Positions 10,107-45,889 of a stretch of 64,000 nucleotides of DNA are shown here, piece after piece. Below the pieces are notes generated by a model that was not told the DNA's origin, made no database searches, and worked only from the letters and a program-made list of their open reading frames with translations. The position numbers and the translations under genes are program-made. Location: the NCBI GenBank assembly GCA_963740355.1, contig CAVUDW010000003.1, forward strand, positions 2,016,001-2,080,000, read 5' to 3'. This DNA comes from an uncultured Gemmatimonadaceae bacterium (GTDB lineage Bacteria > Gemmatimonadota > Gemmatimonadetes > Gemmatimonadales > Gemmatimonadaceae). The first letter of the stretch is position 1. Every line of letters starts with the position of its first letter.

Positions 10107-11960
10107 ATGCGCTCCAGCCACTGGTCCGCGTTCCTCTGCACGGTCGTCCTCACCGTCTCGGCCGCCGCCCAATCGACGCCCAAGGTCGAACTCGCCCAGT
10201 ATGCGAGGCGCGCCGCTGAGATCCCGATGCGCGATGGGGTCACGCTCCATACCGAGATCCTCATACCATCGGGCGTCGCGACACCGCTGCCCTTTCTCTT
10301 CCGACGCACCCCGTACGGCGCGCCCGACGTCACGCCGCAGGTGCTCTCGGGCGGGTACCGCGAGCTGGCCGAAGAGGGATACATCTTCGTGGTGCAGGAT
10401 ATCCGCGGGCGATACCGCTCCGGCGGCACTTTCGTGATGCAGCGCCCGCTCCGCCCGACCGACAGCCTCACCACCGGCATCGACGAAACCACCGACGCCT
10501 ACGACACCATCGAGTGGTTGCTGAAGAACATTCCCAACCACAACGGTCGCGTCGGCATGCTCGGCGTTTCGTACGATGGCTGGACCTCGGCGATGGCGAT
10601 GCTCGATCCGCACCCGGCGCTCAAGGCCGTCAGTGAGCAAGCATCGCCGGCCGACATGTTCATCGGCGACGACTTCCATCACAACGGCGCCTTTCGCTTG
10701 AGCTACGGTTTCGAGTACGCCTACATGACCGAAGCCACACACGAGAACAGCGAATACAAGTTCAACCCGACTGACACCTACGACTGGTACCTGCAGGTTG
10801 GCCCGCTGCGCAACATTCAAGCGCGTGTCATGCGCGACACGGTGTTGCCAAGCTGGCGTGATTTCTCGACGCACCCGAACTACGACACGTTCTGGCAGCG
10901 GCAGTCGATGCATCGCTCGCTGACGCGTGTCACCGTGCCGACGCTGAACGTGGCTGGCTGGTGGGATCAGGAAGACTTCTACGGCCCGGTGACGATCTAT
11001 CGCACGCTCGAGAAGCGCGATTCACTGAAGCGGAACACCCTCGTGATCGGTCCGTGGATTCACGGGTCGTGGGGCCGAGGCACCGGCGATTCACTCGATG
11101 CGATTTCATTCGGTTCGCCGACCGCCACCTACTATCGACAGAAGGTGCAGGCGCCGTTCTTCGCGTACTACCTGAAGGACACTGGCGCGCCGCCGATCAA
11201 GGAAGCGCTGGTCTTCGAATCGGGGAGCAATCAGTGGCGCGCCTTCGACACCTGGCCCGCGCCAGGCGCCGAAACCAAGTCACTATTTCTAAACGCGAAC
11301 GGCAAGCTGTCGTTCACCGCTCCAACTGCGTCGGGTGCCACGGCGGTCGATCGATTCGTGAGCAATCCGGCCAATCCAGTGCCGTATCGAAAACGGCCGA
11401 TCGAAGCGACCTATGCGTCGACGGGGTCGCGCTGGTACACCTGGCTGCTGCAGGACCAGCGGTTCCTCAATGACCGAAAGGATGTGTTGCGCTGGGTGAG
11501 CGAGCCGCTGACCGAGGATGTCGTGATCGCCGGCGACATCGCGGCCAAGTTGTTCGTCAGCACCACCGGTCAGGACGCTGACTGGGTCGTGAAGCTGATC
11601 GATGTCTACCCGAACACGGCCAGCGTGCCGGTCAAGAATCGCGGCTACCAGCTGATGGTGGCGAATGACGTCTTCCGCAGCCGCTTCCGCGAGTCGTTCG
11701 AAGTCCCGAAGCCACTCGAGCCGAACGCCGTCACCCCGATCACAATCGACCTGCACACGCAGAGTTATCGGTTCCTGAAGGGTCACCGGATCATGGTGCA
11801 TGTGCAGAGCACCTGGTTCCCCCTCATCGACCGGAATCCGCAGACCTGGGTGCCGAACATCTTCGATGCCACCGAGGCCGACTTCAAGGCGCAGACGCAT
11901 AGTGTCTGGCGGTCGGCTACGCAGGCGTCGCGGATCGAGATGCAGGTGGTGAAGCCGTAG
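10107..11960 (+). CDS. CocE/NonD family serine hydrolase (S15-like)
   Basis: RTPYG, QDIRGRYRSGG, GVSYDG nucleophile, GWWDQED, GPWIHG; signal peptide. Confidence 0.92.
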   Translation: MRSSHWSAFLCTVVLTVSAAAQSTPKVELAQYARRAAEIPMRDGVTLHTEILIPSGVATPLPFLFRRTPYGAPDVTPQVLSGGYRELAEEGYIFVVQDIRGRYRSGGTFVMQRPLRPTDSLTTGIDETTDAYDTIEWLLKNIPNHNGRVGMLGVSYDGWTSAMAMLDPHPALKAVSEQASPADMFIGDDFHHNGAFRLSYGFEYAYMTEATHENSEYKFNPTDTYDWYLQVGPLRNIQARVMRDTVLPSWRDFSTHPNYDTFWQRQSMHRSLTRVTVPTLNVAGWWDQEDFYGPVTIYRTLEKRDSLKRNTLVIGPWIHGSWGRGTGDSLDAISFGSPTATYYRQKVQAPFFAYYLKDTGAPPIKEALVFESGSNQWRAFDTWPAPGAETKSLFLNANGKLSFTAPTASGATAVDRFVSNPANPVPYRKRPIEATYASTGSRWYTWLLQDQRFLNDRKDVLRWVSEPLTEDVVIAGDIAAKLFVSTTGQDADWVVKLIDVYPNTASVPVKNRGYQLMVANDVFRSRFRESFEVPKPLEPNAVTPITIDLHTQSYRFLKGHRIMVHVQSTWFPLIDRNPQTWVPNIFDATEADFKAQTHSVWRSATQASRIEMQVVKP

Positions 11961-11964
11961 AGGC

Positions 11965-12307
11965 GGGGACACTGTATTCAGTGTCCCCGCCGTGCGTTCG
12001 CGCACAGCTGCCGGACAGCGGGGACACCGACAGATCGAGGTGGGGACACTGTATTCAGTGTCCCCGCCGTACGTTCGAGCACAGCTGCCGGACAACGGGG
12101 ACACCGACAGATCGAGGTGGGGACACTGTATTCAGTGTCCCCGCCGTGCGTTCGCGCACGGCTGCCGGACAGCGGGGACACCGAATACGGTGTCCCAACA
12201 GAACGCGTGCCATCGTCTGCCGGAGATTGGGGACACCGAATACGGTGTCCCCAATCGAAGCCGAATACGGTGTCCCCAATCGAAGCCGAACTCGGTGTCC
12301 CCAATCG
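11965..12307. repeat. Tandem array of palindromic REP-like units (ggggacac-N8-gtgtcccc)
   Basis: 77-bp units starting 11965, 12042, 12119, each with ggggacactgtattcagtgtcccc; then ggggacaccgaatacggtgtccc variants and ccgaatacggtgtccccaatcgaag repeats; fills gap between convergent genes. Confidence 0.9.
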
Positions 12308-12310
12308 CCA

Positions 12311-31932: not shown

Positions 31933-34900
31933 ATGACATTGCCGCCCCCATTCGCCCACTCGATTGCCATCGTCATCGGCATCGATCGCTACGCGAACGG
32001 AATTCCGGAGCTGCGCACCGCAGCCAACGACGCGCAACGGCTGGCCACCTTGCTGGCCGAGCAACACAGCTACGATGTCACCACGCTGATCGACGCCGAT
32101 GCCTCACGGGCACGCCTGACGGAATTGCTGACGAAGGAGCTGCCCGCGCGCGTCGGTGTCGACGACCGCGTGCTCTTCTACTTCGCCGGCCATGGTGTGG
32201 CGCGCGACAGTGACGAAGGCCCGAACGGCTACCTGCTTCCAGCGGACGCGCGACGCGGTGACGAGTCCACGTACCTCAACATGCCGCTGGTGCACGACGC
32301 GCTGCTTGGACTCAGCTGCCGCCACATGCTGGTCGTGCTCGACTCCTGCTTTTCCGGCGCATTCCGGTGGTCGGGCACACGCGACGCCGAGGAAGTGGTG
32401 GAGGTGGTGCATCAGGAGAAGTATGACCGGTTCGTGAAGGACCCCGCCTGGCAGGTGATCACCTCCGCCTCGCAAGACCAAAAGGCCATCGACCAACTCT
32501 CGGCAGGCGCACTCGGGAGCCGTGATGGCGATGGCGCACATTCCCCATTCGCGCTCGCCCTGTTCGATGGATTGAGCGGCAAGGGCGATGTCATTCCGCG
32601 CGAGGGTGGCGACGGGTTGGTGACGGCCACCGAGCTCTATCTCTATCTCGACGAGACACTGCAGAGCGCGGCACTGGCCGCAGGCAAGACGCAGACGCCA
32701 CGACTGTGGCCGCTGAAGAAGCACGACAAGGGCGAGTTCGTCTTCTTCGTTCCAGGCCGCGATCTCTCGCTGCCCCCGGCGCCACCGCTCACCTTCGACA
32801 ACAATCCGTGGCGCGGCCTCGCATCGCACGACGCCACCAATGCGACGCTGTTCTTTGGGCGTGATGCAGAAACGGAAGCGCTGCGAAAGAAGGTCGAAGC
32901 CAATCCACTGACCGTGGTGCTGGGTGCATCCGGCACAGGAAAGTCTTCGCTGGTGAAGGCCGGCGTCGTCCCTCGCCTCACGGCCGGCGGCTGGCTGGTG
33001 TTGCCGATTGTGCGCCCGGGGTCAACACCGCTGATCGCGCTTGCACAGGCACTGTCGGTTGACGGTCAGGGCTCGGCCGGCGCCGCCACTCCGGAGAGCG
33101 TCACTGCCGTGATGCAGCGACTCCTCGATGCACAGGGCGACAAGAAAGTCGTGCTGGTGATCGATCAGTTCGAGGAACTGATCACCCTCGTGCCCTCCGG
33201 CGCCGAGCGCGATCGCACGCTGGCGCTGCTCGCCAGTCTCGCCGATGCGCACGCCGATCGCTTGCGCATCGTCGTCACGATCCGCACCGACTTCGAGCCC
33301 AATTTCGACCGCTCCGCCTTCGGCGATCGGTGGCGAGAGGGCCGCTACAACGTGCCACCGATGTCGCGGCAGAATCTCCGCGACGTGATCGAGAAGCCGG
33401 CCGCCGCGCGAGTGTTGTACTTCGACCCATCCAGCCTCGTGGACACGCTGCTGGACGAGGTGGTGACGACGCCGGGCGCGTTGCCACTGCTCTCCTTTGC
33501 GTTGAGCGAGATGTACATCGCCTACGTAAAGCGCCAGAGCAGCGATCGTGCCATCACACGCGCCGACTACGATGGCCTTGGTGGAGTCGCTGGCGCACTT
33601 CGCTCGCGCGCCGAATCCGAGTACGCCGCGCTCGACGCGGCACATCGCGCCACGCTGCGTCGCGTCATGCTGCGCCTGGTGACCGGTGAAGGTGGTGGCC
33701 TCGCACGGCGGCGAGTGATGGATGCCGAACTCGATTTTGCCGACATGGACGAACATGCCCGCGCCGCCAACGTGGTGCAGCGCCTCACCGCCGCACGACT
33801 GCTCGTCGAAGGGAAGGAACCGGATGGCGAGGCATTCGTCGAACCGGCGCACGATGCACTGGTCCGTGGCTGGGGACGCCTGATGGAATGGGTGCGCGAA
33901 GAGAACGAAGCGAAATTCGCGCTCTCGCAGCAGCAACGGCTCACGCGATCGGCCACCGAATGGGAGCGAGCCGACGCCACCTCGAAATCCGGCCTGTTGT
34001 GGAGCGACTCGTCGCGCAGCGCCCAGCTGGCGCCGCTGGTTCGGAAGAAGGCCCCGTGGCTCAATCGTCGAGAGCTGGCTTTCGCGCAGCGCAGCATCCG
34101 GGGGCGGCGGATCACGATGGCAACCGTCGCCGGCGCGCTGCTCACCATCACCGCGGCCGGAATCGTCGCCATCGTGGGCGGCCTGCGAGCCAGTGCACGA
34201 GCCGAGCAGGTTCGCATCGGGGCAATCGTCCGCACGGCCACCTCGATGGTGACCGAGGATCCGATGATCGCCGGCCTGCTGCTCGGCAGCATCGACAGCG
34301 CCGCCGTCGAGAAGGCTGATGCCGCCACCCGTCTCGCGATGCTCGGCGCCGCACTCGAGCTGCGTCGCGGGCCTCGCGTCCTGGCCACCTTCAACGCCGA
34401 CGATGAAGTCGTCGCGGCGCGGATCAGCCCCGATGGCCGATCGGTGGCGACCGCCGTGATCGACAATGAAGTGCGGATCTGGCGCGCCGATGGCACCGGG
34501 TCACCGCTGGTGCTGCGGCAGCCGAACATGCCGGTGACGGCGATCGAGTTTTCGCCGAGCAGTGATCGTCTGGCCGTCGGCGATGCAAACGGCGCGATCC
34601 GCATCTGGCCACGAACCGGCCCCGGCGCTCCAGTCACGCTGCCGGGCGATGCGACGCCCGTCTTGCGGATGCAGTTCAGCCGAGACGGCAGACGCCTGCT
34701 GGTGACGTACGATGTCGGTGCGGCGAAGATCTGGACGACCGACGGCTCGGGCTCGCCAACCGAGATCCAGTCGAAGAAGATCAAGTACCTCGTCGCCGGC
34801 GTGTCGCCTGAGACCGGCAAGGACATGCTCACCCCAGCGTTCGTGGGCGTGGACGAGGCGCTGTTCGCCGATGGCGATCGACAGGTCGTGACGATCATGC

Positions 34901-36684
34901 GCGACAGCAGCGTGCAATTCTGGCCCAGCGTCGGTGTGGCCGAGCCGACGCGCACGGTACGACTGCCGCGACGCGAGGAACCGACGCGGATCGCGGTCAG
35001 CCCGGACGGCAAACGCGTCGCCGTCGGCGGTCGGAACGCGCAACTCTTCGTGCTCGATCTGGGCGTCAAGTCGCGCAGCCTGCGGCTCTCCGGCGCCACC
35101 GGCGACATCGCGGCGCTCGGCTGGAGCCCCGACGGCGCGATGTTGGTGAGTACTGCCACCGACACCGGCATGCTGGTGTGGAATACGACCTCGGGCGAAC
35201 GCATCCGCCGATTCCGGCACAACGGCGAGGCGATGCAATCGGCCGATTTCAGCCCGGACGGTCGCTCGATCATCACGACCTCGCCGTATTCGTTTCAGGC
35301 TACCATCTGGTCGCTCGACAGCGCGGTCGTCGCGCTCCCAGGCCAGACGAACGAGCTGGTGGCGGCAGACTTCGCCCCTGATTCGCGTCGCGTCCTCACG
35401 GCCGCGAAAGACGGCAGCGTGCGGCTCTGGTCGCTACCAGACCCACCCATCTACTCCGAACGCGGTGGCATCGAAAGCGAACATCCCGAAGGAGGCAACA
35501 TCGCGGCGGTGGCATTCTCGCCGGACGAAAGAACGATCGCGATGAGTACGCTGGACGGTCTTATGTATCAAAAGCGGCTTGATAGTGTCTCGATGAAGCG
35601 TATGATCGACTCTGCGCCAGGGACGCTGCGGACGCTGGCATTTTCGCCTGATGGACGCCGCCTGCGCGGTCTCCTGTACGACGGAACGCGGCGACTCTGG
35701 ACGCTCGGCACAATCCCGTCCCGTGCGGACGTCCCGACGAGCTCGACCGCATTTGCGATCACCACGGAGTTCGCCGCCGACGGTCGGCACGCACTCTCCA
35801 TCACCGATCAGGGCAGCGCGCTGGTGTGGGATGTCGACACGAAATCACCGCCGATGACGCTGCAGCTTCTCCCCGCCGATTCCATCTGCGCCGGTCAGGA
35901 CGGCGACGACGATTGCGCCGATCCGTTGGATAGCTGCGCCGCGCTGTCGCGCGATGGTCAGTTCGCGGCGGCATGCCTGCGCGCGGGTCCGGCCGCGATC
36001 TACCGCGTGCCGACGACGACGCCATTCCGCACGATCACGACACCCCGATCGAGCCGGTCCACAGCCGTGGCATTCAATTCCGACGCCAGCCGGATCGCGG
36101 TCGGCTACGGCAACGGCAGCATTCGGCTCTTCACGGTCGCCGGCGCAGATACCGGCCGCCTGATCGCAGGACATCGGCAGGCGGTAAAGCTGCTCGACTT
36201 CTCCCCCGATGGTCAGCGACTGCTCTCGGCCGCCAAGGACGGCACGGTCCGCGTCTGGGACACCGCGACGGGCACCTCGCTCGTCACCATCCGACCCAAA
36301 GGCCTGGTGATTCAGGTCGCGAAGTTCACGCGCGACGGGACACGCATCGTCACGCTCGGCGCCGGCGAAGTGGATGGTCGGCTGTGGAACGCTGATGGGT
36401 CGGGCGGCTTCGTCTCGATGCCGGCCGGGCGAGGCGAAGTCCGCGAGCTGTATCCCAGCGCCAGTGGCAGATGGCTGCTGGCCACCAGTGCCGAGCAGAC
36501 CGCCCAGCTCTATCCACTCGATCCGAATGATGCGATCGCCGCATTTCGAAATGCCCGCACCTGCATGACAGTGGCCGAACGCCAGCGGTACCTCACCGAG
36601 TCCGCGCCAGACGCGACAACCCGATATCGAGCGTGCGAGACAAGTCGACGTGGTACTGATACGACGACAACGCCTGCGCGATGA
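31933..36684 (+). CDS. Caspase (C14)-nSTAND1 NTPase-TM-WD40 protein (NLR-like)
   Basis: FYFAGHG / LDSCFSG dyad; NPWRGL, Walker A GASGTGKS, Walker B VIDQFEE, GALPLL, HDALVRGW; TM 34111-34185; many FSPDG..TA..DG.VR.W repeats. Confidence 0.92.
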   Translation: MTLPPPFAHSIAIVIGIDRYANGIPELRTAANDAQRLATLLAEQHSYDVTTLIDADASRARLTELLTKELPARVGVDDRVLFYFAGHGVARDSDEGPNGYLLPADARRGDESTYLNMPLVHDALLGLSCRHMLVVLDSCFSGAFRWSGTRDAEEVVEVVHQEKYDRFVKDPAWQVITSASQDQKAIDQLSAGALGSRDGDGAHSPFALALFDGLSGKGDVIPREGGDGLVTATELYLYLDETLQSAALAAGKTQTPRLWPLKKHDKGEFVFFVPGRDLSLPPAPPLTFDNNPWRGLASHDATNATLFFGRDAETEALRKKVEANPLTVVLGASGTGKSSLVKAGVVPRLTAGGWLVLPIVRPGSTPLIALAQALSVDGQGSAGAATPESVTAVMQRLLDAQGDKKVVLVIDQFEELITLVPSGAERDRTLALLASLADAHADRLRIVVTIRTDFEPNFDRSAFGDRWREGRYNVPPMSRQNLRDVIEKPAAARVLYFDPSSLVDTLLDEVVTTPGALPLLSFALSEMYIAYVKRQSSDRAITRADYDGLGGVAGALRSRAESEYAALDAAHRATLRRVMLRLVTGEGGGLARRRVMDAELDFADMDEHARAANVVQRLTAARLLVEGKEPDGEAFVEPAHDALVRGWGRLMEWVREENEAKFALSQQQRLTRSATEWERADATSKSGLLWSDSSRSAQLAPLVRKKAPWLNRRELAFAQRSIRGRRITMATVAGALLTITAAGIVAIVGGLRASARAEQVRIGAIVRTATSMVTEDPMIAGLLLGSIDSAAVEKADAATRLAMLGAALELRRGPRVLATFNADDEVVAARISPDGRSVATAVIDNEVRIWRADGTGSPLVLRQPNMPVTAIEFSPSSDRLAVGDANGAIRIWPRTGPGAPVTLPGDATPVLRMQFSRDGRRLLVTYDVGAAKIWTTDGSGSPTEIQSKKIKYLVAGVSPETGKDMLTPAFVGVDEALFADGDRQVVTIMRDSSVQFWPSVGVAEPTRTVRLPRREEPTRIAVSPDGKRVAVGGRNAQLFVLDLGVKSRSLRLSGATGDIAALGWSPDGAMLVSTATDTGMLVWNTTSGERIRRFRHNGEAMQSADFSPDGRSIITTSPYSFQATIWSLDSAVVALPGQTNELVAADFAPDSRRVLTAAKDGSVRLWSLPDPPIYSERGGIESEHPEGGNIAAVAFSPDERTIAMSTLDGLMYQKRLDSVSMKRMIDSAPGTLRTLAFSPDGRRLRGLLYDGTRRLWTLGTIPSRADVPTSSTAFAITTEFAADGRHALSITDQGSALVWDVDTKSPPMTLQLLPADSICAGQDGDDDCADPLDSCAALSRDGQFAAACLRAGPAAIYRVPTTTPFRTITTPRSSRSTAVAFNSDASRIAVGYGNGSIRLFTVAGADTGRLIAGHRQAVKLLDFSPDGQRLLSAAKDGTVRVWDTATGTSLVTIRPKGLVIQVAKFTRDGTRIVTLGAGEVDGRLWNADGSGGFVSMPAGRGEVRELYPSASGRWLLATSAEQTAQLYPLDPNDAIAAFRNARTCMTVAERQRYLTESAPDATTRYRACETSRRGTDTTTTPAR

Positions 36685-36747: not shown

Positions 36748-39669
36748 GTGACCACGCCCAACCTCCCTGGTGATCCGAAGCCGGTGAACGGGCCGCCTCT
36801 CTCCGGCGTGATCGCCAACCGCTACCGGATCGAACGGCAGATCGGCGAGGGCGGGATGGCGACGGTCTACCTCGCCCACGACCTCACACGCGGGGTATCG
36901 GTCGCACTGAAGGCGCCCAAGGCCGAGTTGGTGATGCAGCTCGGCGCGGCACGCTTTGCGCGCGAAATCCAGATCTCGACCAAGCTGCAGCACCCGCACA
37001 TCGTCCCCGTGCTGGACGCTGGTTTCGCCTCGGAGTCGGTGCCGTTCTACGTCATGCCGTTCATCGACGGCGAGACGCTCGAGCAGAAGCTGGAGCGAAC
37101 CGGCGCCCTCCCCATCGACGAAGCGATCACCATCGCCACCGAAGTGCTGGACGGGCTGATCTACGCGCACAAGCAAGGCTTCGTGCACCGCGACGTAAAG
37201 CCATCGAATGTTCTGATCGCAAACGGGCATGCGATGTTGGCTGACTTCGGCATCGCGCGCGCCGTCGAGACGACCGACAACCGCAAGCTGACCGAGTCGG
37301 GCTTTGCGCTCGGCACCGCCGAGTACATGAGTCCCGAGCAGGCGGCCGGCGATGCGCAGCTCGACGGTCGCAGCGATCAGTACAGCCTCGGTTGCGTGCT
37401 CTATGAAATGCTGGTCGGCGGACCACCGTTCAGCGCGCCGACGGCACGCGCCGTGATGGCTCGGCACTTCGTGGATCCCGTGCCGAGCATTCGCACGGTG
37501 CGCGACACCGTGCCGGAGAAGCTCGAGCAGGCGGTGATGACTGCCCTGTCGAAGATTCCGGTCGATCGATTCGCGGACGCCGCAGCCTTCAAGGCAGCGC
37601 TGAAGGACCCGACGCTGCGCGACGCGACGGCGGCGAGACCGACCACCGCGGCACTGGCAAGGCGCAAGCGAACACGCGTCGTGGGTGGCGTACTCGCGGC
37701 GGTAGCCGTGATCGCGGCACTCACTCTCTGGCGTATGGGTGGAAGTGCCAGTGCGGTGCTCGATCCGAATCGGGTCATGGTCTACCCGTTCGTGACGCCT
37801 GCCGGCTACAGCGGTGCACAAGCGGTGGGCGAAGACGTTGCCACCATCATCGGCAACGCACTCGATGCGGCCGAGCCATTGCGTTGGGTGGACGGGTGGT
37901 CGATGCTCGCCGCGAAGGATCGCGAGAATATCCGGCTGCTCGAAGCGGATGACGCGCGCCGGCTGGCACGTGAGAAACGCTGCGCCACGTTCATCACCGG
38001 GAGGCTCGTGCCGAGCGGTGATTCCGTGAAGGTGTACCTCACGCTGAATGATGTCAGCGGTGACTCGGTACTGGCGCAGGGCGAAGCCACCGGCAGCGCA
38101 AAGGACCCATGGCGCCAGGGCCTTCGCGCCATGAGCGGCATCCTGCCGAAGCTGATCCCGGGCGGCACCAGAGACGTTTCGGCGGACTGGAAGGATCGCA
38201 GCCCTGGTGCGGTCGCCAGCTTCCTCCTTGGCGAAGCAGCATTCCGTCGCGTGCAGATGACGGATGCGCTGACGCGCTTCCGCAAGGCAATCGAGCTCGA
38301 TTCGACCTTTGCGCTGGCGGCGTTGCGTGGCGCACAGGCGGCATCCTGGAATCACCGGAGCGCTGAAGCTGCGTCGATGGTGTCTGTTGCACTCACGCAG
38401 CCGTTACCACCACGCTATCACCAGCTTGCGGTCGGAATCGCGGCGTATCTCGCCGGGCACGCCGATTCTGCGATCGTTCACCTGCATGCAGCGACAGCGG
38501 CCGATCCGGATATGACCGTCGCCTGGATGCAGCTGGGTGAGGTGTACACACACCTGCTGCCGTTGGCTGGCAATACCGACTCACTGGCAGACCTCGCATT
38601 TTCGCGGGCACGGATGCTCGACACCAATGCGGCGAGCGCACTGCTGCATCCGATCGAGATACGCCTTCGTCGCGCCGACACGGTCGCGGCGCAGGCGCTT
38701 CTGGCACGCTTCCGCGCCGCAAACCCTGATGCGCCCCTTCTTGCGCCGCTCACGATCGCCGAGACCTGCGTGACCAAGGGCGCGACGGCGGTAGACTGGA
38801 ACGGCGAGGCCGCGCGGCAACCGCTCTACCTTCTCGCAGCATCGAAGACACTCGCCGGTGGTGGCGCGCAGCTCGAGTGCGCGGTCGCAGGCTTCCGCGC
38901 GATTCTGGCCATCGATACGGCGGCGACGGATGAAGCCGATGCCCGGCGATTCGCCGCCATGCTCGGCCTGCAGGCAATTCACCTCGCCCGTGGTCAGCCG
39001 GCGTTGGCATCTGCCACCATCGATGCATTCGTCGCCCGCTGGGGTGCAGGGTCATCGCTGTTCCTGCTCGATGGAGCATTCGAGCCCGCGCTGCTCGCTC
39101 GGGCTAGCGCGGTCGCCGCATCGGATGCCGCGACGTACGGTGTGAACTACACCAACTTGCCGTACGCGCGGCGACTCTGGGAGTTGGGGATACTCGAGAT
39201 GCGGACGGGCAGCGTGGACGTGGCCGCAGCGGCCGCCGCAGAACTTCGCCGCCGCGGTGCCGACCCCGACTCCAGCTATGCGCTCGCACGCGCAATGTCG
39301 CTCGAGGCGTTCGTCCAGCTCGCGCGCAGCACCACGAGAGCCGATTCAGCGAATGCCGAGCAGCGTTTCGTCGCGCTGCTCGAGCGCGGCCCGGACGGGG
39401 AGTCCTATCAGTGGGATGAGGCCGCACCGATGGCGGCAGAACGACTCACGCTGGCACGGTTGCTCCAGGCCCGAGGTGCGTACGAGCAGGCAATCGGTGT
39501 CGCCGAAGTGTTCGACTCGCGTTGGCCGCTGGTCTACGTGCAATTCCTGCCAGCCAGTCTCGAACTGCGGGCGGCGGCAGCGAAGTCGCTTGGCAATTCC
39601 GCGCGCGAGTCGCATTATCTAACTCGCCTCGCTGCACTGCGAAGTCAGGTGAAGGCTACCGGAGGCTGA
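36748..39669 (+). CDS. Membrane Ser/Thr kinase with TolB-N-like and TPR-like C-terminal region
   Basis: IGEGGMA, VALK, HRDVKPSN, DFG, MSPEQ; TM VVGGVLAAVAVIAALTLW; helical repeats such as FRKAIELDSTFALA. Confidence 0.92.
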   Translation: MTTPNLPGDPKPVNGPPLSGVIANRYRIERQIGEGGMATVYLAHDLTRGVSVALKAPKAELVMQLGAARFAREIQISTKLQHPHIVPVLDAGFASESVPFYVMPFIDGETLEQKLERTGALPIDEAITIATEVLDGLIYAHKQGFVHRDVKPSNVLIANGHAMLADFGIARAVETTDNRKLTESGFALGTAEYMSPEQAAGDAQLDGRSDQYSLGCVLYEMLVGGPPFSAPTARAVMARHFVDPVPSIRTVRDTVPEKLEQAVMTALSKIPVDRFADAAAFKAALKDPTLRDATAARPTTAALARRKRTRVVGGVLAAVAVIAALTLWRMGGSASAVLDPNRVMVYPFVTPAGYSGAQAVGEDVATIIGNALDAAEPLRWVDGWSMLAAKDRENIRLLEADDARRLAREKRCATFITGRLVPSGDSVKVYLTLNDVSGDSVLAQGEATGSAKDPWRQGLRAMSGILPKLIPGGTRDVSADWKDRSPGAVASFLLGEAAFRRVQMTDALTRFRKAIELDSTFALAALRGAQAASWNHRSAEAASMVSVALTQPLPPRYHQLAVGIAAYLAGHADSAIVHLHAATAADPDMTVAWMQLGEVYTHLLPLAGNTDSLADLAFSRARMLDTNAASALLHPIEIRLRRADTVAAQALLARFRAANPDAPLLAPLTIAETCVTKGATAVDWNGEAARQPLYLLAASKTLAGGGAQLECAVAGFRAILAIDTAATDEADARRFAAMLGLQAIHLARGQPALASATIDAFVARWGAGSSLFLLDGAFEPALLARASAVAASDAATYGVNYTNLPYARRLWELGILEMRTGSVDVAAAAAAELRRRGADPDSSYALARAMSLEAFVQLARSTTRADSANAEQRFVALLERGPDGESYQWDEAAPMAAERLTLARLLQARGAYEQAIGVAEVFDSRWPLVYVQFLPASLELRAAAAKSLGNSARESHYLTRLAALRSQVKATGG

Positions 39670-39697
39670 GCCTCCATTCCCGTCCGAGGGTAGTTCG

Positions 39698-40027
39698 ATG
39701 ACCAAAGGTCGCGAAGGTGATGTCGTTGCGCCGACATCGAGTAAGGGTCGTGATGGCGACATCGTGGCGCCGGTCTCAGGCAAGGGACGCGAGGGAGACA
39801 TCGTCGCGCCGGTCTCAGGCAAGGGTCGCGAGGGAGACATCGTCGCGCCGGTGTCAGGCAAGGGTCGCGAAGGAGACATTGTCGCACCGGTCTCGGGCAA
39901 GGGTCGCGAAGGGGACATCGTCGCGCCGGTCTCAGGCAAGGGACGCGAAGGCGACATCGTCGCACCGGTCTCGGGCAAGGGTCGCTCCGGTGGGGAACCG
40001 GTGAAGAAGGACCCGCGCGACCGATAG
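39698..40027 (+). CDS. Small tandem-repeat protein, 7 x 13 aa (KGREGDIVAPVSG); candidate multi-copy peptide precursor
   Basis: GAGGG RBS 7 nt before ATG; fills gap between co-oriented genes; differences among units 3-7 are all synonymous in this frame. Confidence 0.8.
   Translation: MTKGREGDVVAPTSSKGRDGDIVAPVSGKGREGDIVAPVSGKGREGDIVAPVSGKGREGDIVAPVSGKGREGDIVAPVSGKGREGDIVAPVSGKGRSGGEPVKKDPRDR
39704..39985 (+). repeat. 39-bp coding tandem repeat, about 7.2 units
   Basis: aagggNcgcgaRggNgacatYgtcgcNccggtNtcNggc repeated head to tail with no spacers. Confidence 0.95.
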
Positions 40028-40058: not shown

Positions 40059-41636
40059 ATGACGATGCCCGAGTCTTCTGTCGACGGCGTCCGCCGCGCC
40101 GTGGTCATTGGCGTCGACAACTACACCAAGAAGCCGCTCGACGGGTGCGTTGCCGACGCGACGATGATGGCCGAGGTACTGCAGCAGCGGTTCGCGTTCG
40201 ACAAGGCGAATATCTCGCTCCTGCTGAACGATGCCGCGCGCCGCGATGCCGTGCTTGCGGAGCTCGACCAGCTCGTCGATCTCACCACGGCGAACGATGT
40301 CGCGTTCATCTTTTACGCCGGCCATGGTTCACAGTCGGTGAATAGCGACAACACCGAATCGAGTGGCTACGACAGCACCTTCAACGTCTGCGACAATCCG
40401 CGCGAGGACATTCTCGACGACGAGATCGCGGCGCGCCTCGCTGCCCTCGGCGAGAAGTCGCCCTGGACGGTGATGATCGTTGACGCCTGCAATTCAGGCA
40501 CGCTCACCCGCAGCGCAGACGCCGGGCCGAAAGAACGCTGGACGCCGCCGGTCGACCGCACAGCCCTGCCGGCCGCTGCGCAGCAGGCGCTCACGACGCG
40601 AAGTCCCGTCGCTGCAACACCGGAGTCGTACGTTCTCCTGACGGCCTGCCGTGATGGCGAGATCGCGCAGGAGACGGTCATCCCCGGCGACCAGACCATC
40701 CACCACGGGGCGTTCACGTTTGCACTCGTTCACGAGTTGCAGCGCGCAATCGGTGGCGACACCTGGCGCGACGTATTCGATCGGGTGTCACGGGCGGTCA
40801 GCACAGTGCACAAGGAGCAGCACCCGCAGATCGATGGCAATCTCGATCGCGAAATCTTCGGCCTCCGGCAACTGCCACCGATGCCGTTCGTGGCCATCAC
40901 TGATCGCGCCAGTACCTCCGCCGTGCTCGCCGCCGGCTCGCTGCACGGTGTCAGCATCGGCAGCGTGTACACGATCTACGCCGATGGGACCAAGGATGTC
41001 ACCGGCGCAGCGTCGCTTGGCACGGTCGAAGTGACACTGGTGAAGGGCACCACGTCTCGTGCACGCGTCGTCTCTGAGACGGCACCTGGTGCGATCGTGA
41101 TCGGCTCACGCGCTGTACAATCACAACGCCGAACAGTCGACGATGCGCTTGCGCTCACCAATACCGATCCGAAGAGCCGCATGCAGGGTGCCGTCACCCT
41201 CGAGATCCTTCGTCGTGACGTCGACGGTGCGTGGGCCGTCGCCATGGACGACGTGTCGTTCGGCATGCCCGTCTTCGACTCCGGCGATCGCATCGCATTT
41301 CGCATGACGAACACACTCGATGAGCCAGTGTTCGTGAACCTCTTTGACTTCGACCCGACGGGTACGGTGTCAGTCAAGACGAAAGGCTGGGCGAATCAGC
41401 TGAAGGCAAAGGGGGTGTTCGAGATCGGTACGGACACCCGCAAGATCTCGATGCGCTGGGATGCGGATGACGCGGTGGAGTCGTTCAAGCTGTTTGCATC
41501 CGTCGCGCAGGTGGACCTCTCCTGGCTCCTGCAGCTCGACCAGCCGGGGCGCGGCACTGAGGAGGTGTCATCGCTTGCGGTCGACGACTGGTGCTCGCAC
41601 GTGAAGTCAATCCGCATCCGTCGGAAACTCGCATGA
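40059..41636 (+). CDS. Metacaspase-like C14 protease with C-terminal DUF4384-like domain
   Basis: RAVVIGVDNY..LDGCVADA, FYAGHGS, IVDACNSG, GAFT, QHPQ; C-terminal GDRIAFRMTN..FVNL..ESFKLFAS. Confidence 0.9.
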   Translation: MTMPESSVDGVRRAVVIGVDNYTKKPLDGCVADATMMAEVLQQRFAFDKANISLLLNDAARRDAVLAELDQLVDLTTANDVAFIFYAGHGSQSVNSDNTESSGYDSTFNVCDNPREDILDDEIAARLAALGEKSPWTVMIVDACNSGTLTRSADAGPKERWTPPVDRTALPAAAQQALTTRSPVAATPESYVLLTACRDGEIAQETVIPGDQTIHHGAFTFALVHELQRAIGGDTWRDVFDRVSRAVSTVHKEQHPQIDGNLDREIFGLRQLPPMPFVAITDRASTSAVLAAGSLHGVSIGSVYTIYADGTKDVTGAASLGTVEVTLVKGTTSRARVVSETAPGAIVIGSRAVQSQRRTVDDALALTNTDPKSRMQGAVTLEILRRDVDGAWAVAMDDVSFGMPVFDSGDRIAFRMTNTLDEPVFVNLFDFDPTGTVSVKTKGWANQLKAKGVFEIGTDTRKISMRWDADDAVESFKLFASVAQVDLSWLLQLDQPGRGTEEVSSLAVDDWCSHVKSIRIRRKLA

Positions 41637-43555
41637 CACCCCGGGTCTACGCCCTCCTGGTGGGCATCAACGACTACGTCGCCGTGCCCAAGCTGCATGG
41701 CTGCGTCGCGGACATCTCGGCCGTGGAAGCACTGCTGTCCTCACGCATCCCGAAGGACGCGCTCGACATGCAGGTCTTGCATGACGACAATGCGACCCGC
41801 GCCGGCATCATCGACGGATTCCGGACTCACCTGCGAAAGGCCGCGGCGGACGACATCGCGGTGTTCTACTTCTGTGGCCACGGATCGCAGGAGAATTGCC
41901 CGCCGGAGTGGCTCCCGCTCGAGCCAACGAGCAAGAACCAGACGATCGTGCCGGTGGACGCCCGAACCGGCGACGTGTTCGACATCGCGGACAAGGAGTT
42001 GAGTGCGCTGATCCACGAAGTGGCAGCAGGTGGTGCACAGGTGGTGACGATCTTCGACTCGTGTCACTCCGGTGGCGTGACACGTGATATCGACGACACG
42101 ACGCTCGGGCATGAGAGCCCCGTGCGCATGACTGCCGCCAGCACCGGGCGGACGCGAACACTCGCCGACTATCTCGATCTCGCACGCACCCTGTACGACC
42201 CGACGCGCATCGCCGCCGAGGGGCCACCCGATCCCAGTCATATCGCGATCTCGGCCTGTCAGTACGACCAGACGGCGAAGGAATTCCCGATACAGCCACC
42301 GCGCCGCGGTGCGTTCACGCAGGCGTTCGAAGAGGCAGCGAGTTCGCTCGGCCCGTCTGCGAGCTACATCGATCTCGTCACAGCGGTCCGCACGAGAGTG
42401 CGTGATCGCGCCACGGACCAGATGCCGAGCCTCTCAGTGATTGGCAAGGCCGACGGTGCCTCGATCTTCATGGCAGGGCATGTCGGGCGGCGGGACCTCA
42501 CCTTGGACATCGATTCGACCGGAGCATGGTGGTTGTCGTCGGGATCGATCACCGGTATTCCGCCAACTGAAAGCGGCAACGTCACCTCCGTCGCCATTTT
42601 CCCGCGAGGCGCCTTCGACTCGCCTGCCGCGACACCTGCGCCGATTGCGACAGCGACCATCGATCTCGTCACCGCCGATCGTGCACGTTTGAAGTTGGGC
42701 AGCAATTCAGCACCGCTTGATGCCGCACAGCAGTACCTCGGTACAATTTCTGGTATGGGTACGCCGCCCCTCAATGTCGTCGTTACTGGGGCGGTGGCCG
42801 AGCAGACTGCGGCAGTCACGACGGTCCTGGCCGGGCGCAGTGGGCTGTTCGCCGTGAATGCGACGGCGACATCGAGCTTGCCGACGGTCACCGTTCGTGT
42901 CGATGCGACAACAGCCACGATCCACGACGCCGATGGCGCGCCATTGCCGAACCAGCAGTTCACGCTCGAAGCCGCGGGGCTGCAGTCGCTCGCCAACGCC
43001 TGTGATCATCTCGCGAAGTGGTACGGCACGCGCGATCGCACGCCGATCGCATCGACGCTCAACGGCAGGGTGACGATCGACGTCGTGCCCGTCGCGCCCG
43101 GTGAGACGACGGTTCCTCCTGATCGCGCTGCTGTCGCTCCCACCAATGGCACGGTCGTGCTGCGCTACACGGGTGACCAGCCGCCGGTGGTGCAGTTCCG
43201 GCTCAAGAACACGTCGGGAGTGCGGTTGTATGTCGCACTCCTCGACCTCACCGATTCGTATGGATGCTCGGTGAAGTTCAGCGATTGGATTCCCGCCGGC
43301 GGCACGGCGCTCGCCGGTGGCGGCAAGACGTACAAGATGAGCTTTGCCGCGTGGCGGGATCCGTCGTTCACGGTCACGACCGACATCATGAAGCTCTTCG
43401 CCGCCACCAGTGATTTCAGCACGACGCAGCTCGTGCTCGAATCGCTGTTGAAGCCGAAGGTGGTGGGCGGGACGCGGGAAGCGGTGGAGGAGGAAGAGGA
43501 GCCGGACACGTCCTTTTGGGGGACGACGGCGGTTGTCGTGGAGACGCGGCGGTAG
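41633..43555 (+). CDS. Metacaspase-like C14 protease with C-terminal DUF4384-like domain (paralogue)
   Basis: YALLVGINDY..LHGCVADI, FYFCGHGS, IFDSCHSG, ISAC, GAFT, QMP; ATGA overlap with upstream stop. Confidence 0.9.
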   Translation: MTPRVYALLVGINDYVAVPKLHGCVADISAVEALLSSRIPKDALDMQVLHDDNATRAGIIDGFRTHLRKAAADDIAVFYFCGHGSQENCPPEWLPLEPTSKNQTIVPVDARTGDVFDIADKELSALIHEVAAGGAQVVTIFDSCHSGGVTRDIDDTTLGHESPVRMTAASTGRTRTLADYLDLARTLYDPTRIAAEGPPDPSHIAISACQYDQTAKEFPIQPPRRGAFTQAFEEAASSLGPSASYIDLVTAVRTRVRDRATDQMPSLSVIGKADGASIFMAGHVGRRDLTLDIDSTGAWWLSSGSITGIPPTESGNVTSVAIFPRGAFDSPAATPAPIATATIDLVTADRARLKLGSNSAPLDAAQQYLGTISGMGTPPLNVVVTGAVAEQTAAVTTVLAGRSGLFAVNATATSSLPTVTVRVDATTATIHDADGAPLPNQQFTLEAAGLQSLANACDHLAKWYGTRDRTPIASTLNGRVTIDVVPVAPGETTVPPDRAAVAPTNGTVVLRYTGDQPPVVQFRLKNTSGVRLYVALLDLTDSYGCSVKFSDWIPAGGTALAGGGKTYKMSFAAWRDPSFTVTTDIMKLFAATSDFSTTQLVLESLLKPKVVGGTREAVEEEEEPDTSFWGTTAVVVETRR

Positions 43556-43568
43556 GGCGGGCGCAGAA

Positions 43569-45587
43569 TCAGCGTGGTCTTTCGACTAACTGTGGTTGCG
43601 CGCGACCTGCTGCCTGCAGACCGTTGCCGAGTGCGCCGAAGACGTTGGAGCCCCAGCACCAGGCCTTGCCGCTCGCGCTGAAGGCGCAGGCGTGGCGAAA
43701 GCCGACGCTGATCGACGTAAAGTTACCTGCTGGTTGATTTGGGATCAGCTTCGGTGCGAACTCGACTCCGAGCGCGTCGCTTCCGCTCTGCCGCCATTGG
43801 TTGCTGCCCCAGCAGTACGCCGCACCCGAGGATTCCAGTGCGCATGTGTGTGAGGAGACGGCGTCTCCGCCTGCTACCACGTACGCGAGTGGCGACGAGG
43901 AAGCAACAGTAGTTGGCGTCGTGACGAATCCGACGTTCGAGTTGATGCCAAGCTGGCCACTTGAATTGTCGCCCCAGCACTGCGCCACACCGTTCGCTCG
44001 AAGTCCACATGTATGCTTATAGCCTGCACTGACCGACACATACGGGCCGCCCAAAACTGTGTCCGTCAATGCGTCAGTGCTCTGCAACGTACCGAGTCCG
44101 AGTTGCCCACGGTCATTGGCGCCCCAACAGAAAGTCCGTCCCGCTACCGTGACGGCACATGTGTGAAATCCGCCGGCGGCGATCGATCGAAATGTTGTAT
44201 CCGGATAGATCGGAATGGGAGTCGTCGAGTTCACACGGCGCGCGTCGCCGAGCTGCCCTGTCGAGTCACGCCCCCAACAGAACGCCTTGCCTGCCGCCGT
44301 CAACGCGCACGCATGGTTGGCACCCGCAGAGATCGAGTCGAAACGTTCGCTGCGCACGGTCACGAGGCGCGGCGTAGTGCCGCCACCCGGCGACGAACCG
44401 TTGCCGATCTGGCCGTACGTGTCCGATCCCCAGCAATAGGTCGAACGATCGGTCGTGATTCCGCACGCGAAGTTGCCGCCGAGCGAAATTGTCTTGAAAG
44501 AGAGTGTATTCGTCGAGTCGTGCTTCGGTGAAAGTGAGCAGGCGAAGCGAACGGGTGAGGGGGCTTCGAAGGAATCGAAACAGAGGCTATCCCCAGCAGT
44601 CGCAAGCTGCCCGAGATCTCCCTTGCCCCAGCAATAGAGACGTCCGGTGACCGTCGTTCCGCAGGAGAAGTCGCCCCCTGCTCGGACCGTGACCAGGTCG
44701 CGTTCGAGCACCGTGAGCGTGATCGAGGCGGTCCGGAATCCAGAGGCCGCCGAGATCGTAACAGCGCCCGCACTCCGGGTAATCACGCGTCCCGATGTAT
44801 CGACAGTCGCAACCGTGTTGTCCGAGGTCGTCCAGACGAACTTCCGCCCCGCGACTGCACGATCGTCGTACCCGCGTGCCGTCGCCTTGACGATCACCGT
44901 ATCCGAGGCGAGGACCTGCGTCACGGGCGTGGTCAAGGCGATGTCCTTGATCACCGGAAGGACGGTGACAGTCCCGGAGCCGGCCGCGGAAATTGCCGAC
45001 GCGGTCAGGCCCGCAACGCCTGGCGCCACCGCGTGGACAGTGCCGGTCGAATCGACGGTCGCCACGGTTGGGGCGAGCGAGGTCCAGACGAAGCGTGTCC
45101 CGGCAACTGCCTTCGCACTGTCGTCGAAAGCCGTCGCCACGAATCGAAGGGAGTCCGCACGGACGATCGGGTCATCCACGATGATCGTGTCGCTCCGCGG
45201 CGTGACGGTGACCCGTTGTGCGGCGCGAGCGATCACAATCGTGGCGTATCCCTTCACGCGCGCACTGGCCGCAATGCGCACCGTGCCGAGATTGACCGGC
45301 CGGACCACACCCGCCTCGTTGACCACCGCGACCGAGGAGTCCTCGGTGAGCCAGATCACCCGCCCGCCGGTGATCGTCTGGAAGTCGGTGCCGACGATGC
45401 GTGCTGACAGCTGCCGCTGGTCGGTCGGGCGCAATGTGTCCGCCACGAAGATCGTATCCACTTCCGGCGTCACGTCGACGCGCAGAACGCTGGAGCCGGT
45501 CAGGCCTGGATCAATCGGGCCAGTATCCGCATCACAACCTGCAAGTGTCAGCGCGAGGCCGAGGGAGAGGAGAGCGCCGCGAGTCAT
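43569..45587 (-). CDS. Lipoprotein with Ig-like (Big_2) repeats and RCC1 beta-propeller
   Basis: Lipobox LAGC; three W.S....VATVD..G.V repeats; seven AG..H.C....G...CWG repeats. Confidence 0.9.
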   Translation of the reverse strand: MTRGALLSLGLALTLAGCDADTGPIDPGLTGSSVLRVDVTPEVDTIFVADTLRPTDQRQLSARIVGTDFQTITGGRVIWLTEDSSVAVVNEAGVVRPVNLGTVRIAASARVKGYATIVIARAAQRVTVTPRSDTIIVDDPIVRADSLRFVATAFDDSAKAVAGTRFVWTSLAPTVATVDSTGTVHAVAPGVAGLTASAISAAGSGTVTVLPVIKDIALTTPVTQVLASDTVIVKATARGYDDRAVAGRKFVWTTSDNTVATVDTSGRVITRSAGAVTISAASGFRTASITLTVLERDLVTVRAGGDFSCGTTVTGRLYCWGKGDLGQLATAGDSLCFDSFEAPSPVRFACSLSPKHDSTNTLSFKTISLGGNFACGITTDRSTYCWGSDTYGQIGNGSSPGGGTTPRLVTVRSERFDSISAGANHACALTAAGKAFCWGRDSTGQLGDARRVNSTTPIPIYPDTTFRSIAAGGFHTCAVTVAGRTFCWGANDRGQLGLGTLQSTDALTDTVLGGPYVSVSAGYKHTCGLRANGVAQCWGDNSSGQLGINSNVGFVTTPTTVASSSPLAYVVAGGDAVSSHTCALESSGAAYCWGSNQWRQSGSDALGVEFAPKLIPNQPAGNFTSISVGFRHACAFSASGKAWCWGSNVFGALGNGLQAAGRAQPQLVERPR

Positions 45588-45889
45588 CGATTTTCCGAGG
45601 GGAGAGTCCGTTCCGATCAGCTGAGCTGAGCCGACGCAAAGGTTCGATACGAGTCGAAGCCTTTGCACGGATCAGACCGGAACGCCGATCGGCGCGGCAC
45701 GTCCACCCCCTCCTCTACAGCGACGCTGCTTTGAGCGCCACACTGTCCGCGGCTCGTCTCGGATTGTGGCAGCTTCGCTACGAAAGTGCAGCGCACTCAA
45801 AGGATGGCTGCATCCCTACTAGGAATATTCTGCTAATATATCAAAACATCGTGCGTGACATATCACGCCGGAATCCTCTGCGAGGCCCG

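Follow-up and report, generated by a model that had tools for sequence, protein, structure and literature searches.

Tandem-repeat mini-proteins between a kinase-TPR protein and caspase-like proteases in Gemmatimonadota cassettes: candidate docking and cleavage hubs

The 64,000-nucleotide stretch of DNA analyzed here (the window; assembly GCA_963740355.1, contig CAVUDW010000003.1, positions 2,016,001 to 2,080,000) comes from an uncultured Gemmatimonadaceae bacterium and carries a run of genes for a STAND-type protein, a Ser/Thr protein kinase, a short repeat protein, and two caspase-like proteases. Cassettes of caspase, STAND, and kinase genes are recognized as bacterial immunity or programmed-death systems, in which the restraint of the protease and the wiring of the sensor are mostly unknown. 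Our subject is the short open reading frame (ORF) between the kinase and the first caspase, which encodes a 109-amino acid (aa) tandem-repeat protein, here called the mini-protein. All cassette genes lie on the plus strand and are tightly spaced (Table 1), with the kinase stop codon 28 nt before the mini-ORF start and caspase 1 starting 31 nt past the mini-ORF stop. A convergent gene on the minus strand (43569-45668), encoding a 698-aa protein with Big_2 and RCC1 repeats, faces the end of the caspase operon.

Table 1. Features of the cassette, in positions of the window
Feature	Position	Strand	Detail	Basis
Caspase-nSTAND1-WD40 protein (NLR-like)	31933..36684	+	First gene of the same-strand run	
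Ser/Thr protein kinase	36748..39669	+	HRD and DFG present; ~640-aa TPR-like C-terminal region	Pfam, look-alike search
Shine-Dalgarno-like GAGGG	39686..39690	+	7 nt ahead of the ATG	
109-aa repeat mini-protein ORF	39698..40027 (stop included)	+	MT, then seven 13-aa units, then a 16-aa tail	Translation, orthologues
Seven 39-nt units encoding KGR[E/D]GD[I/V]VAP[V/T]S[G/S]	39704..39976	+	R-x5-A-P in each	
Basic C-terminal tail KGRSGGEPVKKDPRDR	39977..40024	+		
Caspase 1: C14 metacaspase-like protease with beta-sandwich domains, weak DUF4384 match	40059..41636	+	H89, C144, D33, D142	
Caspase 2: second C14 protease, overlapping the end of caspase 1	41591..43555	+		

The mini-ORF had been singled out in an original prediction made from the nucleotide sequence alone, and its description proved accurate: the translation of seven 13-aa units matches exactly, the tripeptide KGR occurs eight times, and the units differ mainly by synonymous changes. 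In the window genome (G000; G numbers denote genomes and L numbers loci), the unit is KGREGDIVAPVSG, present in seven copies. Tandem Repeats Finder reports a single array (39703-39985, period 39, 7.3 copies, 85% matches, score 377), which is single-copy in the 5.45-Mb genome and scores highest of the 10 in-frame arrays found there with a period of 18-60 and four or more copies. Units 3-7 encode one peptide and differ at seven DNA columns, all seven at codon position 3 and with the codon pairs that the prediction had listed. Extending the comparison to units 2-7 gives nine variable columns, again all at position 3 (chance for one named position (1/3)^9 = 5e-5). Read contigs from four DNA runs were compared with this region: a 165-nt contig from run X1 is identical over 39745-39909, and a 181-nt contig from run X2 is identical over 39588-39768. 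All contigs are short and none spans the array, so that its copy number is neither confirmed nor challenged. At another place in the same genome (G000:C2:765807-766020), a 24-nt array of 8.9 copies reads AKKAAKKG in one frame, a histone-H1-like basic repeat.

The relatives compared are Gemmatimonadaceae. A six-frame search of 60 of them gave clear matches to the mini-protein in four congeners; the tallies of this search and of the 401-genome kinase search described below include two unpublished genomes, G026 and G102, on which no claim rests. With the 525-aa caspase 1 as query, 11 of the 20 genus genomes (G000 among them) gave orthologues at E <= 3e-121, and the strongest match among 41 other genomes outside the genus was a single partial one in G036 (1.5e-44). 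A short repeat ORF lies directly upstream of caspase 1 in all 11 genus genomes, two of these ORFs being cut by contig ends. The repeated unit differs from species to species: KGREDSVAPVTG in 10 copies in G012, KGRSDGVAPVTS in 8-9 copies in G004 and G002, KGRGGDAAPQAV in G003, KGRGRDTTAAPAPN in 7 copies in G009, and KREG[V/A/S]AAP or TREGSAAP in 4-5 copies in G015, G013, G010, and G008, with a compound unit in G006. A metagenome-assembled genome (MAG) labelled Acidimicrobiia carries the unit KGREGGAVAPAPS (L030), and four metagenome contigs (L110-L113) carry arrays of up to 13.9 copies. The Lys/Arg-rich tail is common to all same-genus orthologues. When 400 other genomes from across the phylum were searched with a family profile, one further array was recovered, MTDQT(REGGTAPPDKG)x6 in G180.

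The pattern of substitutions within these arrays is that of coding DNA. In ten same-genus arrays, the variable columns fall 15/7/72 on codon positions 1/2/3, with 86 synonymous versus 18 amino acid types; the corresponding binomial probability of at least 72 of 94 at position 3 is 1e-17, a significance that is overstated, as units and species are related. Among units with the same peptide, as many as 9 of 36 nt are different. Similarly, seven arrays from other genera distribute 3/4/63, with 76 synonymous and 5 amino acid types, and all seven start with ATG behind a Shine-Dalgarno-like stretch. In the seventeen arrays pooled, 135 of 164 variable columns are at position 3, the units measure 8-14 aa, and copy numbers range from 3 to 14. 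A negative control comes from two Phycisphaera-type MAGs, where the DNA immediately upstream of caspase genes holds 21-nt repeats that have a palindromic CAGCGCTG core (L082:1476-1654 and L086:2250-2336) and vary 4/4/4 and 3/3/4 over the codon positions; because they lack any codon-position bias and contain a palindrome, these are probably DNA- or RNA-level elements rather than peptides. Copy number thus varies among orthologues with frames intact, and neither frameshifts nor non-synonymous drift were seen in the orthologous repeats, which supports the proposal of selection on the peptide. On this comparative evidence, we regard the mini-ORF as a real, conserved protein-coding gene under purifying selection on its peptide, belonging to a family that evolves through unit length (8-14 aa) and copy number (3-14) while its units stay under strong purifying selection.

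One caveat had been overlooked in the original prediction: the synonymous pattern holds equally for one antisense frame, the one that shares its wobble positions with the sense frame. By six-frame translation of the same ten arrays, that antisense frame has 86 synonymous codon types and 19 amino acid types, as against 86 and 18 in the sense frame, and the remaining four frames have 4-9 synonymous and 93-102 amino acid types. Therefore, the synonymous argument excludes only four of six frames; it proves the coding constraint, not the strand. We choose the sense strand because of its signals, its spacing, the defects of the antisense frame, and the orientation of the flanking genes. An ATG follows a GAGG/GGAG-type Shine-Dalgarno stretch by 5-10 nt in all nine complete same-genus orthologues, and an ATG with a GGAG/GAGG-like stretch is present in all 16 complete orthologues once the seven from other genera are added; CGAGGGT is preserved in five of eight aligned upstream regions and reads CGAGGAT in a sixth. 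At six loci measured, the mini-ORF starts 28-51 nt past the kinase stop and ends 31-54 nt ahead of the caspase start codon. In the antisense frame, G015 offers no start codon ahead of the array, G003 has a stop, and the starts elsewhere are inconsistent (TTG, GTG, or ATG), and the flanking genes are all on the sense strand with gaps of 28-54 nt. That the mini-protein is not the product, with either the antisense frame coding or the repeat acting as a DNA- or RNA-level element, might draw on the openness of the antisense frame across most arrays and on the fact that none of six exact mini-protein sequences was found in a collection of 15 billion proteins. Set against the concentration of variable columns at position 3, the flat 4/4/4 distribution of the Phycisphaera repeat, and the conserved sense starts and ends, this alternative is very improbable. 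A TTGGCA-17-CATTAT promoter match also lies upstream, at 39590-39618; since it falls within conserved kinase coding sequence, its own conservation is uninformative.

All units share a simple grammar: Gly/Lys-(Gly)-Arg, then an acidic residue or Gly, and a Pro at +6 (+7 in G000 and L030). The Arg is conserved in every unit of every array, and of the 121 Arg residues in 12 same-clade proteins, 80 belong to an R-x4-A-P motif (x5 in G000 and L030). The family members have no Cys, contain 1-20% hydrophobic residues, and lack a hydrophobic stretch. As stated in the original prediction, no signal peptide or hydrophobic N-terminal stretch was seen on inspection of the sequences (no predictor was used) in any of the 16 complete orthologues. 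An AlphaFold2 (AF2) model built on an 8-sequence alignment has a predicted local distance difference test (pLDDT) score of 45.5 and a predicted template-modeling (pTM) score of 0.13, with 91 of 109 residues below pLDDT 50; DSSP assigns no secondary structure to it, which is weak negative evidence given the shallow alignment. The mini-protein is therefore predicted to be intrinsically disordered.

The most constant neighbor of the array is the kinase: every array lies directly after a Ser/Thr kinase with a TPR region. The C-terminal 644 aa of the window kinase resemble TPR clusters in a language-model look-alike search (score 0.97), and the ten best named matches are all TPR families. A search with this region found homologues in 92 of 401 phylum-sample genomes at E <= 1e-20. 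Nine of the ten best kinase-TPR loci (E <= 1e-177) have a repeat mini-ORF directly downstream, with units GGGREGATAPPPP in G140, REGATAPPPAGG in G202, GGGGRGEGTPPP in G162, GGGRGDDPPPPPP in G195, RGGPSGPPPVGGG in G228, GGDRDPGAKPTS in G410, and REGGTAPPDKG in G180, an irregular array in G211, and the window array in G000. The next gene is a caspase in six of the nine (G000, G211, G162, G140, G202, and G410). In G180, which belongs to another family, the kinase is 45% identical to the window kinase over 955 aa, TPR part included, with the array directly after it. There (L193:6267-9611, minus strand), the genes that come after kinase and mini-protein encode a TPR protein and one with a TIR domain, not caspases, an arrangement that looks like effector swapping within one cassette frame. 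The loci form nested sets, in which the kinase clade includes the array-bearing loci and these include the caspase-bearing ones.

More distant kinase homologues carry a different small partner. Among 19 weaker homologues examined (20 fetched), 14 have a non-repeat ORF of 62-100 aa located 10-52 nt downstream (L205-L223; e.g., L211:3427-3624, plus strand; L206:3454-3639, plus strand; L207:1203-1457, minus strand). These ORFs have no Pfam family match. What they have in common is a basic N-terminus, a central segment containing Trp, and a tail at the C-terminus such as GGGGTPPPPPKWP (GG-T-PPPPP-[F/W]). No caspase was found in the five next ORFs scanned past them, within the ~1.1 kb of downstream DNA that is visible. 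The tail resembles one array unit, and we infer that the arrays arose by amplification of the tail of such a non-repeat partner, which may be the ancestral form.

The caspases themselves look intact. For caspase 1, the AF2 model (pLDDT 76.2) has a caspase/hemoglobinase fold, and its top Foldseek matches are GSU0716 (3bij), AtMC4, AtMC9, the MALT1 caspase-Ig3 structure, Yca1, and TbMCA2 (E 4e-12 to 9e-8). The His-Cys dyad of metacaspase/orthocaspase-type C14 proteases is present: H89 and C144, together with D33 and D142, are invariant in an alignment of 10 caspase-1 sequences, and both caspase 2 and the caspase fused to STAND retain all four residues. D33 (GCxxD) and D142 (DxC) line up with AtMC4 and Yca1 at their GCxxD and DxCHSG motifs; G000 reads DACNSG where others read DxCHSG. 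By motif, we take D33 and D142 to be the putative counterparts of Asp95 and Asp211 in TbMCA2. The S1 pocket of that enzyme is described as Cys92, Asp95, Ser156, and Asp211, with both Asp residues accommodating basic side chains (PMC4357240, PMC6426788). Because His, Cys, and both acidic S1 residues are intact, the neighboring caspases are very probably Arg/Lys-specific proteases.

Around this core, the cassette is variable. A STAND gene is present in two of five same-genus cassettes with enough upstream DNA. Six congeners have a caspase 1 of ~1010 aa with a C-terminal DUF7379 alpha/beta-hydrolase, and in the wider sample this hydrolase is fused to the caspase or follows it in four of six caspase-bearing loci. 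In G000, a DUF7379 alpha/beta-hydrolase is a separate 521-aa frame (G000:C3:229759-231273; L190/L240), 1.8 Mb from the cassette. A CHAT protease is added in two same-genus cassettes (G003 and G008) and also follows in G202. An array precedes every caspase-1 orthologue with visible upstream DNA, namely all 11 of the genus, L030, L110-L113, G202, G140, G162, G211, G410, and G352. Along the same lines, orthologues of the G202 caspase-hydrolase occur in seven sample genomes at E <= 1e-150, with an array in all six that have visible upstream DNA. Among 160 loci with caspase-1 patterns (80 from a genome collection, 80 from metagenomes), coding arrays were confined to this orthologous group, and the second caspase pair of G000 (C3:1192-1197 kb) has no repeat ORF. 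The array of G352, a class-level relative (L236:5478-5595), is a partly masked 33-nt repeat that reads TPRPPPPPSSS in one frame ~330 nt upstream of the caspase-hydrolase; the TPR homologue is encoded on the opposite strand ~1.7 kb from it.

The explanation that we favor, tentatively and as something short of probable, is that the mini-protein is a disordered, multivalent hub for docking and cleavage between the kinase-TPR sensor and the caspases. The mini-protein would be the dedicated small partner of the kinase-TPR sensor in a programmed-death or defense-type cassette, with each unit acting as a short linear motif. The Pro-containing half of the unit would dock on the kinase TPR superhelix, and one mini-protein molecule could thereby gather several kinase or effector molecules. 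In caspase-bearing cassettes, the window included, the neighboring Arg/Lys-type caspases would cleave at the Arg of each unit. Their activity would thereby break the hub down to individual units, creating a threshold or feedback element between the sensor kinase and the death protease.

The two halves of this model stand on different evidence. TPR superhelices bind extended peptides. Because the universal neighbor of the array is an active-looking kinase (HRD, DFG) with a TPR-like C-terminus, a multivalent docking array for the TPR would be the most economical common function. Cleavage after each Arg is likely an added property of the caspase-bearing cassettes, because Arg-bearing amplified arrays co-occur with Arg-type caspases and an array lies upstream of every caspase orthologue seen. 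Processing at the basic sites had been proposed originally from the KGR tripeptides; this idea is partly supported by the flanking C14 caspases with His/Cys and putative S1 aspartates. A defense caspase that cuts its alpha/beta-hydrolase partner at R|G has been described (PMC12642450).

Several observations weigh against the hub. Arrays without an adjacent caspase occur in G180, G195, and G228, under equally strong selection; therefore, cleavage cannot be the function common to all arrays, unless those genomes supply a caspase from another locus. Metacaspase specificity is usually set on the non-primed side of the cleaved bond, and it is on the primed side (Arg to Pro) that the spacing in the units is constant; on the other side, from Pro to the next Arg, it varies from 1 to 6 residues in a manual reading of same-genus units. 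The TPR assignment of the kinase C-terminus consists of weak Pfam matches and the language-model look-alike search. A unit-like motif ([K/G]G?R[EDSG][GD]) is absent from the STAND, caspase, and kinase proteins, bar a DGRSD loop in the kinase and four scattered caspase matches. Lastly, the repeat-bearing cassettes are one kinase subclade, and their co-occurrence amounts to approximately one evolutionary event rather than independent counts.

The nearest rival dispenses with kinase binding and makes the mini-protein a pure caspase sponge or inhibitor, a competitive substrate with many sites that would soak up leaky caspase activity stoichiometrically. The Arg in every unit, the Arg/Lys type of the neighboring caspases, and the presence of an array upstream of all caspase orthologues with visible context would suit such a role, and PCi of Haliangium ochraceum is both cleaved by PCaspase and an inhibitor of it (10.1101/2023.06.23.546230). 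However, a neighboring caspase is missing beside three arrays that are under purifying selection, a simple cleavage site would require neither the conservation of whole units nor a constant Arg-to-Pro distance, the disordered mini-protein has no likeness to the predicted CI-2-like fold of PCi and no Pfam match above the cut-off, and the invariant kinase neighbor is left unexplained. We consider the sponge unlikely.

The kinase is what recommends a second rival, a multi-site phosphorylation array whose modification by the upstream enzyme switches a downstream event. Besides being the constant neighbor and keeping HRD and DFG, the kinase would find a Ser or Thr at +2 to +4 after the Arg, just before the Pro, in 11 of 19 unit types read manually; three others (G000, the G003 type, and G195) have an Asp there, a possible phosphomimetic, and the tails of the non-repeat partners often read G-T-P-P-P. 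Yet five unit types have Gly, Ala, or Val at this position, three (the G003/L113 type, G015, and G013) contain no Ser/Thr at all, and no phosphopeptide-binding domain such as FHA is among the domain matches of the cassettes. In the window itself, the homologous residue is Asp, and the Ser cited in the original prediction lies 10 residues past the Arg. Thus, the "one Ser per unit" on which the phosphorylation array had been based is not conserved, although a link to the kinase may still exist. Overall, this reading seems distinctly unlikely.

Two further alternatives turn on peptides released from the array. By the first, which we hold improbable, the caspases would cut a polyprotein, once the death-protease cascade fires, into 5-12 copies of one peptide, which the cognate kinase would read through its TPR, either within that cell or, after lysis, in kin, as a species-specific peptide code; if true, a bacterial alarm loop of the "prohormone plus receptor-kinase" kind would be built into a programmed-death cassette. 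By the second, slightly less probable again, the mini-protein would be a polyprotein precursor of short signal or alarm peptides, analogous to fungal KEX2-processed repeat proteins or animal neuropeptide precursors. TPR domains are classical oligopeptide receptors, and five of seven would-be products in the window are identical and bracketed by basic sites, as in secreted multi-copy precursors; the family profile also finds animal-type multi-copy PRxGRS precursors, a likeness by analogy. Against this, the cassette shows neither a signal peptide nor a transporter, the hydrophilic 8-13-mers have no obvious export route, and the products of other arrays would be heterogeneous, with six distinct peptides among nine units in G002.

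The remaining candidates were rejected. A multi-core precursor of peptides that are made on ribosomes and modified after translation (RiPPs), suggested in the original prediction, lacks a leader, a modifying enzyme, a transporter, and Cys: the first unit begins at residue 3 in G000, G012, G004, G002, and L030, other leaders are at most ~24 residues long and unit-like or low-complexity, Pfam and NCBIfam searches of the cassettes returned kinase, caspases, STAND/WD40, DUF7379, CHAT, and TIR only, with no RiPP enzyme or exporter, and the likeness of the kinase to lanthionine synthetases is confined to its kinase domain. The beta-solenoid or amyloid scaffold, suggested there as well, fails on the low-confidence AF2 model without secondary structure. 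A decoy of the cassette's own cleavage site has no cassette protein with a unit-like motif to mimic; a pore-forming or protease-activated small toxin (Pepco/Trypco, EACC1) finds no NCBIfam or PADLOC family and no hydrophobic stretch; and a PCi-type inhibitor domain is opposed by the absence of a Pfam match above the cut-off and by the disordered model.

The mini-protein component appears to be new. Scoring 8000 candidates of a word-indexed protein search with the 109-aa protein gave none at E <= 0.01, and a full HMMER scan with the family profile, run over 1.84 billion representatives, gave 77 matches, of which all those inspected (13 sequences; Pfam on the top 25) were unrelated repeat proteins, none with a caspase domain. 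Look-alikes in the ESM Atlas were uninformative (best score 0.81), and the mini-protein matched no NCBIfam or PADLOC family. Literature on orthocaspase substrates, on nSTAND1/caspase/DUF4384 proteins, and on conflict systems mentions no repeat mini-protein in such cassettes in its titles and abstracts (supplements excluded); the terms "tandem repeat" and "low complexity" do not occur in PMC7159879, and "repeat" occurs once in PMC12642450, for beta-transducin repeats. Thus, the cassette type is known, and its mini-protein has apparently never been called as a protein. Gene callers appear to miss such small repeat components. An Rfam search of the window returned no matches, including at an intergenic hairpin-repeat cluster (11960-12310) that has a 77-nt unit in 2.9 copies with stems GGGGACAC...GTGTCCCC and a 25-nt unit, also in 2.9 copies (GGGGACACCGAATACGGTGTCCCC).

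What emerges is a third, unannotated cassette component: putatively disordered tandem-motif mini-proteins encoded with a TPR sensor kinase on one side and Arg-type caspases, or a TIR protein, on the other, and found in at least two families of the order Gemmatimonadales, among soil Gemmatimonadota. Should the docking and cleavage hub be true, it would provide a simple model, open to testing, of how thresholds are set or proximity is induced in a death pathway of prokaryotes.

The head-to-tail identical units of the mini-protein, their basic brackets, and the mainly synonymous differences between them recall multi-copy precursors. The yeast alpha-factor precursor and polyubiquitin are head-to-tail multi-copy precursors of this kind; ubiquitin units are folded, whereas those of the mini-protein are predicted not to be. 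For KEX2-processed repeat proteins (KEPs), the definition is a precursor whose multiple cores lie between KEX2 sites (PMC9769878); they have signal peptides and use the secretory pathway, unlike the mini-protein, which shows neither. The pairs PPEP-1/CD2831 and PPEP-2/VMSP offer a second likeness, a protease gene adjoining the gene of a substrate with consecutive copies of the cleavage motif (PMC8610288). PPEPs are metalloproteases that are secreted and cleave the Pro-Pro bonds of large adhesins anchored to the cell wall, whereas the protease here is a cytoplasmic Cys protease and its candidate substrate consists entirely of repeats.

Closer in gene content are the protease-effector modules of biological conflict systems (PMC7159879, PMC12642450), with which the present cassettes share a caspase fused or adjacent to a DUF7379 hydrolase, in most cassettes, and STAND/WD40 sensors. 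The small proteins known from those modules are latent pore-formers or enzymes, in contrast to the hydrophilic, repetitive, and putatively disordered mini-protein. A close parallel is the type III-B CRISPR operon of H. ochraceum, a protease-cascade operon in which the small protein PCi and the Ser/Thr kinase PCk are encoded between a CHAT protease and PCaspase (10.1101/2023.06.23.546230). As in the PCi/PCk/PCaspase arrangement, a small protein and a Ser/Thr kinase stand beside a caspase-like protease, with CHAT present too in G003, G008, and G202. Unlike PCi, a predicted folded CI-2-like inhibitor, the mini-protein is a disordered tandem repeat with no family match and no CRISPR or SAVED context. 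In H. ochraceum, PCi is a substrate and a regulator of the caspase, roles for which the mini-protein is a candidate here.

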